From NCBI GenBank assembly GCA_021850705.1, contig JAJZKU010000001.1, forward strand, positions 157 through 64,156: 64,000 nt of DNA, read 5' to 3'. Below the pieces are notes generated by a model that searched no databases, was not told where the DNA came from, and was given only the letters and a program-made list of their open reading frames with translations. How positions within the stretch are numbered: position 1 is the stretch's first letter; every line of letters begins with the position of its first letter. Positions 9,884-14,536 of this stretch are shown piece by piece. Both the position numbers and the translations under genes were made by a program. Source of the stretch: Candidatus Micrarchaeota archaeon. Its GTDB lineage: Archaea > Micrarchaeota > Micrarchaeia > Micrarchaeales > CABMGC01.

Positions 9884-10057
9884 GAGGATCACTTTGAGGG
9901 ACAAGACAATATTATGCACGTTCTTCTATTTAAACATATTGCTTCAACAAGCCCGAAGCGTTGTCGCCTACACTAAAATATGTCTTTCCTGATATTTAAA
10001 TACGATGGTTTTGTCTCTGGTATACATATGGTTCTGGCTAAGGAAAATAGCATAATA

Positions 10058-10132
10058 TGGGCCCGGAGGGATTTGAACCCTCGACTTGCTGGTTAAGAGC
10101 CAGCCACTCTGACCAAACTGAGTTACGGACCC
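10058..10132 (-). tRNA. tRNA-Lys (anticodon CTT)
   Basis: 75-nt cloverleaf: acceptor GGGTCCG/CGGGCCC, anticodon arm GCTGG-CTCTTAA-CCAGC, T-arm GAGGG-TTCAAAT-CCCTC. Confidence 0.9.
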
Positions 10133-11019
10133 GGTTGTTTTCTCTTCCTGGCTGCGCCAGCCATATTCATCATAATAAGGCTTGCAAGATGTGCTGTCAT
10201 ACCCCGAGAATCATACTTTGGGTTGAGCTCCATTACATCAAAGCCAAGATTTACGCTCTTTCCTATAGTAGAAGCAATATATAATATTTCCCTTGCTGCA
10301 AGTCCGCCTGGTACCGGAGTGCTTACTCCAGGAGCGAAAGCAGGGTCCACAGAGTCAAGGTCAATAGAGACATATACATTATCGGTTACCATGCTTCTTG
10401 CATACTTCGAAACAGCAACTATTCCCTCATCTATTATCTTGTCCATACCCACAAACTTTATGCCTGCTTTTTCAACCTCTGCCATCTCCTCATTCTCTAT
10501 GGCACGCGCTCCTATTATCAGGCTTGAGCCAGGCTCAACATTCTTCAAAGCAAGGACATCGTGTACTACCGAACCGTAATACCTTCCAGCAGAACCCACA
10601 CAATCAGGATGCGCATCTATATAGACAAAACTCCAAGAGTCAACGCATGAATCTATACCTCTGAGTATCTCATAAGTTATAGAATGATCCCCGCCTATGC
10701 ACCCTACCACTCTTTTATTCAAAACCTGCTTTCTTACAAATTCTTCAACTCTCGTCTTTTGGATATTGCCTGCATCATAACAGTTAAGTGGTCCTGAACC
10801 TAACCTGCTATACATTAATGATGAACTCTTCCCCCTCCTTACAGAATCAAACTTTACCGACGTTGCCCTTGCAGCCTCAGGGCCTCCCGAACTCCCCTTC
10901 CTGGGAGCTCTGGAACCTCTCTCACTTGCAACACCGAATATTACCGTATCTGAACTCTTTTCATCAGGAGAGGTACACCATGGAAAAACAAGTTTTCTGC
11001 CTTTTGCCAAAAATAACAC
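10123..11019 (-). CDS. speB: Agmatinase / ureohydrolase family
   Basis: GGDHSIT, DAHPD and SIDLDSVDPAFAPG metal-binding motifs; GTG start lies inside repeat copy A. Confidence 0.8.
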   Translation of the reverse strand: MLFLAKGRKLVFPWCTSPDEKSSDTVIFGVASERGSRAPRKGSSGGPEAARATSVKFDSVRRGKSSSLMYSRLGSGPLNCYDAGNIQKTRVEEFVRKQVLNKRVVGCIGGDHSITYEILRGIDSCVDSWSFVYIDAHPDCVGSAGRYYGSVVHDVLALKNVEPGSSLIIGARAIENEEMAEVEKAGIKFVGMDKIIDEGIVAVSKYARSMVTDNVYVSIDLDSVDPAFAPGVSTPVPGGLAAREILYIASTIGKSVNLGFDVMELNPKYDSRGMTAHLASLIMMNMAGAARKRKQPGP

Positions 11020-11164
11020 CTGCTACAAAATATGTATATTAAAGCATTATAAACACGCCATCTCCAGCTTCAAAACAGTTCAGAGAACGTCTTGATAGTC
11101 AATGTGCAATAGACATATGGATAAAAACGATTACTGTCAGCTACAGGTTTAACCTCTTGAAAAG
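11004..11164. repeat. Direct repeat copy A (speB/gyrB promoter-region duplication)
   Basis: Aligns with 12462-12611 by eye, including a 32-nt identical core AATGTGCAATAGACATATGGATAAAAACGATT (11101-11132 = 12548-12579). Confidence 0.85.
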
Positions 11165-11299
11165 TATATCTTAAATCATTGTAAAACAGTAGTTATGCCG
11201 AGGCTTTGTCGTTTTATTAACACTTCTGTCGTTTTATTCCTTTTTAAAACTCAGCCCAAAATTTTAATATAAAGTCATTCATTATTTTATCGTGATTGT

Positions 11300-11510
11300 A
11301 TGGCAACAAAAGCAAAACAAAGTGCAGAAACTGAGATAGTATCAGATGTGACAGCTATTTTGACACGTCTTGAGCGATCCCGGTAGATTATCTGGAAATG
11401 ATATAGAGAAACTTAAAGAGTCAATAAGAGAACTTTATGCAAAACAGATTATTGGTGAAGTGGAAATGGGTTTGTCGCTCAGAGAGCGTGCAAAACAACG
11501 CACAGATTAA
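11300..11510 (+). pseudogene. Small ORF disrupted by a +1 frameshift (hypothetical, helical)
   Basis: ATG at 11300 gives 28 aa then TAG at 11384-11386. The +1 frame continues GRLSGNDIEKLKESIRELYAKQIIGEVEMGLSLRERAKQRTD to 11510. Confidence 0.2.
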
Positions 11511-12001
11511 TTATTTTGCTTTAAATTTTTAAGCGCCTTGTATCTTTTATAGTATTTCTTAGGGTTATCTTTGCTATTTATAGAAGCCCATTTATAGATA
11601 GCGATGAGGTTTTTAAGACTTACAATTTTTAATTTACAATTACTAAACTTATAATACTTCGGATGGCTCAAATTTATACTCCAAAACTGATAAGAGTCCA
11701 CCTCTATTTTTAAATCATCCCTGAATATCTGTATTGTATGCCATTTAGTTGAATATTTGTATTTTATCTTTCTTTTCGATAATGCTTTATCTATCTTTTT
11801 GAGTGCATTTTCTGAAACAAGAAGATCTATGTCATTTACTCTTATATTGCTATTTTTTGTATATATGAAATAAACCAAACTACCATAAGCAATTGGTGTT
11901 ATCTTTAAATCCTTACATATGATTATTAACTCATTACAAAACGCTATAAGTCTTTTAAACTCCCCCTTATTCCTAGGATATACGGGTTCCAATTTAAACA
12001 C
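11507..12001 (-). CDS. Pol-beta-superfamily nucleotidyltransferase (Lnu/ANT-like size and motif)
   Basis: 164 aa; the G-S...D-x-D signature (YGSLVYFIYTKNSNIRVNDIDLLV) is the minimal NTase motif; strongly AT-rich relative to neighbours. Confidence 0.5.
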   Translation of the reverse strand: MFKLEPVYPRNKGEFKRLIAFCNELIIICKDLKITPIAYGSLVYFIYTKNSNIRVNDIDLLVSENALKKIDKALSKRKIKYKYSTKWHTIQIFRDDLKIEVDSYQFWSINLSHPKYYKFSNCKLKIVSLKNLIAIYKWASINSKDNPKKYYKRYKALKNLKQNN

Positions 12002-12006
12002 TCGTT

Positions 12007-12480
12007 TTAATTGATAAATTTAGCATCTATACCTAACTCGAAACTCTCTTGAATTAGAACATAGATATTATGGCAAAGAACCTTTAAAAGAACCTCGTTT
12101 AACTGTGCCGTTCTGTCCTTGCTTCTAACCAAATCTGTGAACTTCGACTTTATCATCCAAATTGTACTTTCTACATTACTCCTGTTATGGTAATGTGTTA
12201 GAAATTCCTCTCTGTTATAAGTAAAATATCTAAACATCCTCACCCGTGTATAGCTACCACTTGAATTACCAGCCGCATTACTTCTAAACGCTATAAATGG
12301 AGTGTCACCTATTGAACGGACAATGGTGTGGTTATCTCGCGAGCTATACGCTTTATCTGCGGAAGCCAGATCAAATTCTACCTTCCACCAATCGTCCACC
12401 TGCAATCTCAATATTGCAGTCGTTTCCGTGTTCTCCTGCTGAACTTCCATTCCAGGAACCCTTGCCAAAATAACACCCAC
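12007..12480 (-). mobile_element. N-terminally truncated DDE transposase (IS4/IS5 type) remnant
   Basis: Has ADKAYSS (second D region) and an exact Y-x2-R-x3-E-x6-K signature (YHNRSNVESTIWMIK) but lacks the first catalytic-D region. The 5' end is fused to repeat copy B. Confidence 0.6.
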
Positions 12481-12611
12481 TATAAGGCATGTATGAACGT
12501 GCCATCTCCAGCTTCAAAACAGCCTCCAGAGAACGCTTTTAATAGTTAATGTGCAATAGACATATGGATAAAAACGATTCTTAGTAACTACAGTTTTAAC
12601 CTCGGGAAAAC
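12462..12611. repeat. Direct repeat copy B (immediately upstream of gyrB)
   Basis: Partner of 11004-11164, same orientation, with a ~13-nt indel and scattered substitutions. Confidence 0.85.
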
Positions 12612-12631
12612 AATTTATAAATGCTGATAAA

Positions 12632-14536
12632 ATGGCTGACGAAACTTACGATGCTTCAAAGATTATTGTGCTTGAAGGAGCACAGGGCATACGCAAGAGA
12701 CCATCGATGTATATAGGGTCGACAGGTCCATCAGGAATAATACATCTGTTATACGAAGTTATGGATAATGCAGTAGACGAATCCTCTGCCGGATACTGTA
12801 AAAACATAAAAATAAAACTATACAAGCAAGATGGCGCAGACATAGCTGAGGTATCAGACGACGGAAGGGGGATACCTGTAGGGATAATGGAGAAGTACGG
12901 AAAGAGCGCCCTCGAAGTCATAATGACGACACTGCACAAAGGCGCAAAATTCGAGAATGACGTTTACAAGGTATCTGGTGGACTTCATGGTGTAGGACTC
13001 ACCGTAGTAAACGCCCTATCTGAATTCACAGAGGTCACGGTGAAAAGAAACGGCAACATATACAGGCAGACCTTTAGCAGAGGACTCCCAACATCAAAGC
13101 TTGAAGTCATAGGGGAGACCAAGGAGACAGGCACAACAGTAAAGTTCAAGCCAGACTCTGAGATATTCAGTGTAAACACATTTGACATAGCCCTGCTGAA
13201 TGAAAGGTCTCGATACATAAGCTACACCAACGTCGGCCTGCGTATCATAATAACGGATGAGCGCTTCGGAGACAAGGTAGAGGAGACCTACTACTCTGAA
13301 AACGGGATAATCGACTTTGTAGAGTATATAAACAGGGAAAGATCTCCTATAACCTCTGTAATATACGGCAAAACTACTGCAGATTCTACTACGTTGGAGT
13401 ATGCAATGCAGTACACCGAGTCATATGACGAGAAGATAGAGTCTTTTGTAAACAGCATAAAAATGAACGAAGGAGGGACGCACCTTTCAGGTTTCCACGC
13501 TGCATTGACAAGAGCCATAACCAATTACATAGACAAGAACAAGTCTCTCAACACTAAGGCGAAGATAACCGGAGACGATGCAAAAGAAGGCCTTACTGCA
13601 ATAGTGAGTATAAAGATGCAGAATCCGGAATTCGAGGGTCAGACAAAGGAGAAACTGGGAAACGTGAAGATGAAGACCCTTGTAGAGACCTTTGCATACC
13701 AGAACATCTCAAGGTATCTGGAAGAGCATCCTTCAGATGCCAAATCAATAATAAGGAAGATAACCGAGGCTGCAAACGCACGTGACGCTGCAAGGCGTGC
13801 CCGTGAACTTGAGAGAAAGAAGAGCATATTCTCAAGCGCTGTCCTTCCAGGCAAGTTATCGGACTGCATACTCAGCGACCCTGAAAAGACCGAGCTCTTC
13901 ATAGTGGAAGGGGAGAGCGCAGGAGGGTCGAGCAAGCAGGGAAGGGACAAGAACATACAGGCGATACTTCCTTTAAGGGGAAAGATACTCAATGTAGAGA
14001 AGGCAAGCTATGAAAAGATATTCGATAACAAGGAGATAAAAACCATGATTACTGCATTCGGCACAGGTATAAACGAGACATTTAATGCTGCAAACATACG
14101 ATACAAGAAGATAATAATAATGACCGACGCAGACGTTGACGGGAGCCACATAAGGACACTTCTGCTCACATTCTTTTACAGGTACATGCGCAAGATAATA
14201 GAACTCGGTTACGTATACGCTGCACAGCCCCCTCTATATAAAATTGGAAAAGGCAAGGACGAATACTACTGTTACAGCGACGAAGAACTCGCTGAGAAGC
14301 GCAAAGAGTACGGGGAGAATGTAGAGATTCAGAGGTACAAGGGACTCGGAGAGATGAACTACGAGCAGCTATGGGAAACAACAATGAACCCGAAGAACAG
14401 GAAGCTGAAGAAACTATCTATAGAAGACGGTCTTCATGCAGATGAACTTTTCACCATACTTATGGGTGCAGACGTGGCAAAGCGTAGAAGATACCTGCAG
14501 GAACATGCAAAGGAGGTAAAAACACTCGACATATAG
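12632..14536 (+). CDS. gyrB: DNA gyrase subunit B
   Basis: 634 aa with GHKL ATPase N-terminus (VLEGAQGIRKRPSMYIGST), Toprim EGESAGG and PLRGKILNVEKA. Confidence 0.97.
   Translation: MADETYDASKIIVLEGAQGIRKRPSMYIGSTGPSGIIHLLYEVMDNAVDESSAGYCKNIKIKLYKQDGADIAEVSDDGRGIPVGIMEKYGKSALEVIMTTLHKGAKFENDVYKVSGGLHGVGLTVVNALSEFTEVTVKRNGNIYRQTFSRGLPTSKLEVIGETKETGTTVKFKPDSEIFSVNTFDIALLNERSRYISYTNVGLRIIITDERFGDKVEETYYSENGIIDFVEYINRERSPITSVIYGKTTADSTTLEYAMQYTESYDEKIESFVNSIKMNEGGTHLSGFHAALTRAITNYIDKNKSLNTKAKITGDDAKEGLTAIVSIKMQNPEFEGQTKEKLGNVKMKTLVETFAYQNISRYLEEHPSDAKSIIRKITEAANARDAARRARELERKKSIFSSAVLPGKLSDCILSDPEKTELFIVEGESAGGSSKQGRDKNIQAILPLRGKILNVEKASYEKIFDNKEIKTMITAFGTGINETFNAANIRYKKIIIMTDADVDGSHIRTLLLTFFYRYMRKIIELGYVYAAQPPLYKIGKGKDEYYCYSDEELAEKRKEYGENVEIQRYKGLGEMNYEQLWETTMNPKNRKLKKLSIEDGLHADELFTILMGADVAKRRRYLQEHAKEVKTLDI

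Follow-up and report, generated by a model that had tools for sequence, protein, structure and literature searches.

How does a gene-dense, reduced archaeal genome tolerate foreign DNA in a promoter region that two essential genes share? The question is raised by the locus between the divergent genes speB and gyrB, encoding a putative agmatinase and DNA gyrase subunit B, respectively, on contig JAJZKU010000001.1 of a Candidatus Micrarchaeota archaeon (assembly GCA_021850705.1). We analysed a stretch of 64,000 nucleotides of this contig (hereafter the window, to which all coordinates refer). In it, ~1.27 kb of AT-rich DNA separates two copies of the speB-gyrB intergenic region. Our results show that the locus is a strain-polymorphic insertion of a dead, 5'-truncated element of the IS5 family of insertion sequences (ISs) between speB and gyrB. 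The intergenic region is duplicated around it, and this duplication probably made the insertion tolerable: speB and gyrB would each have kept a complete native upstream region.

The two repeats, copy A (~11004–11190) and copy B (~12462–12637), are same-orientation copies of the whole intergenic region, ~180 bp that run from codon 5 of speB to the start codon of gyrB. They differ by 35 substitutions over 169 aligned columns (79% identity), by a 13-nt deletion in copy B and by a few indels of 1–2 nt; BLAST aligns them at 83.6% identity over 128 nt (E = 4e-31). Two blocks of 22 and 32 nt are perfectly identical between the copies (Table 1), and each occurs exactly twice in the window, with a chance expectation of none. 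The G+C content of the window also reaches its minimum here (0.31 in kilobase 11001–12000, versus 0.36–0.49 elsewhere). The alignment, the exact blocks and the low G+C content bear out an earlier note on this DNA, which had described a foreign-looking, AT-rich insert bracketed by same-orientation repeats of the speB/gyrB promoter region. We noted, however, that the homology reaches ~25 nt beyond the right edge given there, up to the gyrB start codon; a second allele of the locus (L058, L059 and L060; 97.2% identical overall) supports this extension, being more native-like in that part in L058. The same arrangement was found in at least 10 independent assemblies and in these two diverged alleles.

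A direct speB-gyrB junction in related genomes, for which the earlier note had proposed to look, was found in seven genomes or contigs. In these, speB directly adjoins gyrB across a single intergenic region of ~170–177 bp, with no trace of the insert. They comprise L011, L012 and L013, whose gyrB is 89–92% identical to that of the window at the nucleotide level, L014 and L015 (~84%), and L056 and L057, which come from samples (ERZ27237454 and ERZ27237460, respectively) that also hold insert-bearing contigs. The distant relatives L017, L019, L020 and L033 have another gene upstream of gyrB. The direct junction is the common state of the clade, and the insert is a polymorphism. The earlier note had further reasoned that insert genes without repeats would point to an ancestral arrangement; no relative examined has such an arrangement.

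The locus is a frequent site of homologous recombination. On the gyrB side, the empty allele L057 and the window are 99.2% identical, but on the speB side only 90.5%, which places a recombination breakpoint in or beside the intergenic region. Filled and empty alleles occur in the same samples, with recombination tracts that end in or beside the locus, and they offer a marker for recombination and for the spread of accessory genes in DPANN archaea. We also noted a contig, L010, that is 100% identical to the window over 10411–12681 (a stretch that takes in the two repeats and the insert, together with part of speB and the beginning of gyrB) and ~7% different on both flanks, which agree with the second allele (speB variant P0147 versus P0145; comparison over 9996–14146). 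Either a recombination tract carried the module from one strain to another, or L010 is chimeric. Synonymous divergence between the window and L058 (6623–14511) differs from gene to gene: 0.036 for GINS, 0.052 for TFE, 0.105 for aIF2-alpha, 0.12 for gyrB and 0.157 for speB. This approximately four-fold spread among adjacent genes points to a mosaic, recombining population.

Which parts of the two copies are native? We compared each copy with the single-copy region of L012, and the answer changes within the 22-nt block. To the left of this block, copy A agrees with L012 at all 26 positions at which A and B differ, and copy B at none. To the right, copy B agrees with L012 at 31 of the 32 differing positions, and the reverse holds at the remaining one. 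The gene-proximal half of each copy is therefore native and conserved, and both inner halves are deviant. The outer half of copy B is a nearly exact match to the single-copy regions of L012, L056 and L057. Almost all deviations in the inner halves are states unique to copies A and B, and they are equally frequent in invariant and in variable columns (Fisher p = 0.5–1.0); hence, the inner halves appear to evolve without constraint. Two other accounts of the deviant halves were rejected. Selected silencing, that is, preferential mutation of functional positions, does not fit since invariant and variable columns are hit equally. Descent from a working intergenic region of another sampled lineage does not fit either, since almost all deviant states are unique and fall at positions that are invariant in all relatives.

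The decay of the inner halves is still under way. Between the window and L058, the inner halves differ at 7 of 63 positions in copy A (11133–11195) and at 3 of 39 in copy B, i.e. 8–11%. By contrast, the outer halves differ by 0–2% (0/53 in the left part of copy A and 2/109 in copy B, 12523–12631), and the 22-nt block of copy B differs at 1 of 22 positions. Non-coding DNA of the insert differs by 3.7%, a passenger gene that we call orf164 by 1.6% and the transposase remnant by 2.8%, so the inner halves are the fastest-diverging part of the locus.

In copy B, the 13-nt deletion and substitutions remove the conserved TATA-like box of speB, TTTATAAT, and alter the spacing; in copy A, this box lies on the minus strand, 27 nt from the GTG start. 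Copy A reads G-TCTTGATAGTC in place of the invariant GCTTTTAATAGTT, ACTGTCAGC in place of CTTAGTAAC and ACA in place of the gyrB ATG; its invariant TTTTAATA box is destroyed. The loss of the TATA-like box and of the TTTTAATA box is seen in both alleles, and the main lesions, being common to the two, are old. The two copies can be viewed as a natural dissection, in which copy A retains what speB needs and copy B what gyrB needs. They point to candidate promoter elements in uncultured Micrarchaeota, namely the speB TATA-like box at 11046–11053 and the invariant AACGCTTTTAATAGTTAATGTGCAATA upstream of gyrB. The gyrB upstream element, AACGCTTTTAATA[GA]TTAA..TGCAAT, is invariant across six lineages and is kept out to L016 (84% GyrB identity). 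It looks like a promoter composed of a B recognition element (BRE) and a TATA box with a conserved ~60-nt leader, or like the site of a regulator; we likewise read the other boxes as putative archaeal BRE/TATA elements. A longer form, AACGCTTTTAATA[GA]TTAA..TGCAATA (12531–12558, ~75–100 nt upstream of gyrB), is essentially invariant among L011–L016, where synonymous sites are saturated. An Rfam search over the conserved intergenic blocks returned a single sub-threshold chance match, located in the insert, and no match for the gyrB element. Judging from these sequences, the inner halves are probably relics rather than working promoters for the insert.

How did the duplication arise? We lean towards an origin in situ, in one ancestral chromosome and together with the arrival of the element, followed by spread through homologous recombination in the flanks. 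The entire intergenic region would have been copied, most likely through fill-in at a staggered break or through template switching. Each gene would have kept its native half beside it, so that both promoters survived the insertion, and the redundant inner halves would then have evolved unconstrained. The module would subsequently have been passed between strains via homologous recombination in the flanking genes; it coexists with empty alleles. We propose duplication of the whole region because only such an event leaves both genes intact. A normal target duplication by the transposase was ruled out because it is far shorter. In classical IS insertion, as here, a DDE transposase of the IS5 family (PF01609, NF033579) sits in an intergenic region between direct repeats of its target. 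However, target-site duplications of IS5 elements typically comprise a few base pairs, whereas the present repeats are ~180 bp long and only 79% identical, and one end of the element is missing; the earlier note was right that they are too long to be such a duplication.

Several observations weigh against an origin in situ. First, the two identical blocks are longer than uniform decay allows (permutation P = 2e-4). Constraint on the blocks found no support, with 5 changes in 108 nt of blocks in L058; block identity without constraint calls for short gene-conversion tracts or a recombination event. The 22-nt block is, moreover, variable among relatives and deleted in L014 and L015. Second, the inner halves are ~25–30% off the native sequence, versus ~0.17 substitutions per site on the window branch since the split from L012, the nearest empty-site genome (estimated from a p-distance of 0.27 at four-fold sites, taken per branch). 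This excess age implies either that the polymorphism is older than the L012 split and was shuffled by recombination, or that the inner halves arrived already diverged. Third, the 157-codon open reading frame (ORF) that contains the transposase remnant is still open, an outcome with a chance of ~1–15% in simulation, depending on the assumed decay. Fourth, no junction microhomology or other direct trace of a staggered break or template switch was found at the locus. Lastly, the promoter assignments used in this reading are drawn solely from sequence and its conservation.

The strongest competitor has the inner halves arrive diverged. A circle that carried the element and a diverged intergenic copy would have integrated by a single crossover in the 22-nt block, in the manner described by Campbell, leaving native outer halves and donor inner halves. 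As in the integration of suicide or integrative plasmids, direct repeats bracket the insert and are hybrids that switch within a stretch of identity; here, the polarity switches exactly within a perfectly identical block. Import would also accommodate the non-random occurrence of identical blocks, an inner-half divergence above what the host branch allows since the L012 split, the lack of excess decay in the transposase remnant, and the demonstrable frequency of homologous recombination at the locus. Nevertheless, we found no donor in scans of metagenomes, viruses and genomes or in the protein database. Metagenome contigs, in a collection that lacks the window's own lineage, matched neither the 22-nt block nor a degenerate pattern of the conserved promoter element, and viral contigs gave no match for the 32-nt core, for a pattern specific to the right part of copy A, or for orf164. 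No circular or extrachromosomal form was found, and neither an integrase nor a replication gene is encoded in the insert. Import would also require a donor with ~30% divergence elsewhere to match the 32-nt block perfectly. Furthermore, the 'donor' halves lack elements that are invariant in every lineage and their changes are blind to constraint, so the donor copy would itself be a dead copy of the host region; import would then only shift the question of how the duplication arose to an older structure of this type. We consider such an import unlikely, but worth keeping in view.

Site-specific integration between attL- and attR-like sites likewise predicts an identical core with host-derived outer arms, and both the 22-nt and 32-nt cores and the native arms are found here. 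These features are, however, also predicted by homologous recombination and by duplication in situ. The locus is not a site-specific integrative element, because no integrase or recombinase is present: the ORFs of the insert are the transposase remnant, a nucleotidyltransferase and a split small ORF.

Alternatively, duplication and insertion might have been separate steps. Either an older tandem duplication later received the IS at its junction, or the IS inserted at the gyrB start and a compensatory duplication then gave gyrB back its native promoter and removed the 5' portion of the transposase gene. The inner halves do look older than the insert (8–11% versus 3–4% neutral divergence between alleles), the intact end of the element meets copy A precisely where that copy ends, at the start codon of gyrB, and the truncated end of the transposase abuts copy B. 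Yet a tandem duplication without the element occurs in no relative examined, and insertion exactly at the duplication junction would be a coincidence of about 1 in 10. The compensatory version requires an intermediate in which gyrB is separated from its start and promoter, which would probably be lethal. We therefore rate these two-step routes as quite unlikely.

The earlier note had also suggested that the duplicated speB promoter and start may drive the transposase remnant, and a functional device of this kind could equally have the copied gyrB promoter drive the genes of the insert. The remnant ORF does start within copy B and is open in both alleles, and copy A retains a TTTAACCTC-like element directed at the small plus-strand ORF. 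Copy A holds the speB start (GTG at 11019 or TTG at 11010), and copy B holds the homologous first ~5 codons. However, the copy B homologue of the speB GTG (12476–12474) is out of frame with the remnant ORF; in frame are a GTG of its own at 12480 and TTG GCA, the homologue of the speB TTG start (~12468–12463). The first 38 codons of the remnant ORF are neutral, with a ratio of nonsynonymous to synonymous polymorphism (pN/pS) of 1.36. Given also that, in both alleles, copy B is without the speB TATA-like box and copy A without the TTTTAATA box, and that the inner halves diverge faster than anything else in the locus, the suggested promoter drive found no support, and a functional device seems very improbable to us.

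The weakest alternative, a collapsed or chimeric join of two strains during assembly, could appeal to the metagenomic source of the data, to several contigs that end close to the repeats and to the possibly chimeric L010, but we give it almost no credence, and mis-assembly is excluded by the following data. The identical structure is present on contigs from at least eight samples, assembled by the European Nucleotide Archive (MEGAHIT k141), the Joint Genome Institute and Logan. Logan contigs of the window's strain, built with k = 31, break off next to the 32-nt core, at the first k-mer specific to one copy (L004 and L005 start at 12550, and L051 ends at 11130), exactly as expected from a true 32-nt repeat at this k. 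The second allele, 2.8% diverged, shows the same structure on an 83.7-kb contig; here the blocks have diverged between the copies, and assembly at k = 31 passes through without a break. The recurrence in samples and in the second allele also answers the concern about mis-assembly voiced in the earlier note.

Either of the two origins that the earlier note had offered, duplication or recombination after an IS insertion or capture of a cassette between repeated promoters, may apply; we saw no sign of a dedicated cassette-capture system. The event is of a known kind, a mobile-element insertion with a flanking segmental duplication, here documented by population data in an uncultured DPANN archaeon. 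A literature search returned nothing directly relevant. The rearrangement is fairly ordinary, and the locus does not overturn current understanding.

Table 1. Features of the speB-gyrB locus, in window coordinates (a dot marks features without a strand).
Feature	Coordinates	Strand	Description
speB (agmatinase/arginase-family ureohydrolase)	10123..11019	-	Start GTG 11019 or TTG 11010; Pfam PF00491
Copy A, outer (native) half	11004..11056	.	First ~5 speB codons and speB-proximal promoter; TATA-like TTTATAAT at 11053-11046 (-)
22-nt block in copy A	11057..11078	.	Identical to 12501-12522 in copy B; switch from 'A native' to 'B native' inside
Copy A, inner (redundant, decaying) half	11079..11190	.	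Includes intact 32-nt block 11101-11132, identical to 12548-12579 in copy B
Element end: terminal array	11186..11238	-	Two copies of AATAAAACGACAG spaced 20 nt apart and a degenerate third; ends ...ACAAAGCC
Split small ORF	11303..11510	+	11303-11386 and 11370-11510; stop and frameshift; no family match
orf164, predicted small stand-alone nucleotidyltransferase	11507..12001	-	164 aa; passenger; G+C 27-29%
IS5-family DDE transposase remnant	12007..12366	-	C-terminal 118 residues; PF01609, NF033579
Filler	12367..12461	-	Open in the frame of the remnant ORF; no transposase homology; neutral evolution
Copy B, inner (redundant, decaying) half	12462..12500	.	Copy of speB start region; speB TATA region gone
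Copy B, 22-nt block and outer (native) half	12501..12631	.	gyrB upstream: invariant AACGCTTTTAATAGTTAATGTGCAATA, 32-nt block 12548-12579, conserved CTTAGTAACTACAGTTTTAACCTCGG
gyrB (DNA gyrase subunit B), followed by gyrA	12632..14536	+	Pfam HATPase_c, DNA_gyraseB, Toprim, DNA_gyraseB_C

We next describe the element itself. The transposase remnant covers positions 71–200 of 200 of PF01609 and positions 156–287 of 289 of NF033579, scoring 58.9 bits where the cut-off is 140. It lacks the N-terminal half and the first catalytic D, so the DDE domain is incomplete. Full-length homologues are 245–275 aa or longer, and L055 has a further N-terminal region. Against 190 homologues, residues 40–157 of the remnant are 57–68% identical to full-length proteins, and their 62% identity equals the level among the homologues themselves. 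On this basis we assign the remnant to the IS5 family, of which it would not be a functional member. No further copy of the element was found in the window.

The ~95 nt of filler between the remnant and copy B showed no homology to any known sequence; they are only 15% identical to the transposase homologues, versus 39% among the homologues themselves. Filler positions 12435–12456 match 10882–10903, within speB codons ~39–46, at 17 of 22 positions (P = 0.04, uncorrected), and the duplication may originally have included more of speB. As an account of the whole filler, a decayed extension of the speB copy was rejected, given that this 22-nt match is weak.

The other end of the element carries a terminal array of short repeats. 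In L052, L053 and L054, arrays of the same build, each with a motif variant of its own, follow the passenger genes; the array is therefore the genuine end of a passenger-carrying IS5-like element. L054 has a full-length transposase, and a similar array is oppositely oriented in L055. The window copy, with this end and a transposase gene cut at the 5' side, reads as 5'-truncated and immobile. The arrays are at 245–290, 385–440, 1037–1098 and 1183–1240 in L052, at 54–112 and 645–709 in L053, at 3095–3150 in L054 and at 2478–2520 in L055. More generally, IS5-like elements with variable passengers in Micrarchaeota and relatives end in two to three copies of a 12–13-mer at 19–20-nt spacing, the last of them followed by ACAAAGC, and the motif varies from element to element. 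In L052 and L053, a truncated copy is flanked on each side by arrays in direct orientation, pointing to nested or tandem insertions. No convincing terminal inverted repeats were found in the full-length relatives. In L055, the N-terminal part of the transposase (W..YN...GRPKL.MRDMVF) extends at 100–270 upstream of the annotated start across an in-frame TAG, which indicates either a pseudogene or some read-through.

These elements resemble transporter insertion sequences (tIS), in which a transposase gene is followed by unrelated passengers, and the passenger differs by copy (orf164 in the window, orf82 in L052 and L053, and orf255 in L054). They differ from tIS in the end beyond the passenger, with two to three 12–13-mers at 20-nt spacing ending in ACAAAGC, and in the direct-orientation arrays on both sides in L052 and L053. 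To our knowledge, no IS5 end like this array of 12–13-mers at 20-nt spacing has been described. Imperfect direct repeats of ~57–185 bp surround the truncated copies in the window, L052 and L053. One might speculate that the array-bearing elements of the window and of L052–L055 are an undescribed kind of archaeal transposon whose insertion or repair copies long stretches of target, the speB-gyrB duplication then being a product of the element's own mechanism. We regard this as decidedly improbable. No long flanking duplication was seen around the full-length relative L054, so such a duplication is not a trait of the family.

The passenger of the window copy, orf164, bears the motif GS...NDIDLL, in which GS and DID are invariant in the alignment. 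Its AlphaFold model has a predicted local distance difference test score (pLDDT) of 90, and Foldseek matched it to the small antibiotic or tRNA nucleotidyltransferases TM1012, LnuA, ANT(2'')-Ia and MenT1 (E = 3e-6 to 1e-3, TM-score 0.55–0.69). By fold and by its G-[SG] ... D-x-[DE] motif, orf164 would be a small nucleotidyltransferase of the Pol-beta fold, with predicted activity. With these four proteins it shares its size, the predicted fold and the invariant G-S ... D-x-D; it is, however, only 8–17% identical to them, no family model scores above threshold and no antitoxin-like partner was recognised next to it. Assignment to a defence system or another named family was rejected, as PADLOC, NCBIfam and a PDB sequence search gave no match. 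Only four homologues were found in 5.8 billion proteins, and elsewhere these adjoin a P-loop kinase or a GNAT acetyltransferase. The pN/pS of orf164 between alleles is 0.37. The small ORF that converges on orf164, interrupted by the same stop in either allele, is a possible partner of the nucleotidyltransferase.

Lastly, the neighbouring genes identify the host. The speB product matches PF00491 over its full length (E = 9e-54, profile positions 2–278 of 280), which places it, by sequence, in the arginase/agmatinase family, with a putative specificity for agmatine. Orthologues of speB in relatives adjoin gyrB and are 78–91% identical at the amino acid level. GyrB is 98–99% identical in amino acid sequence to proteins of Candidatus Micrarchaeota metagenome-assembled genomes, and further archaeal genes (aIF2-alpha, L44e, GINS and TFE) lie nearby. 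The source is a tiny, acid-mine archaeon of the Micrarchaeota (DPANN).

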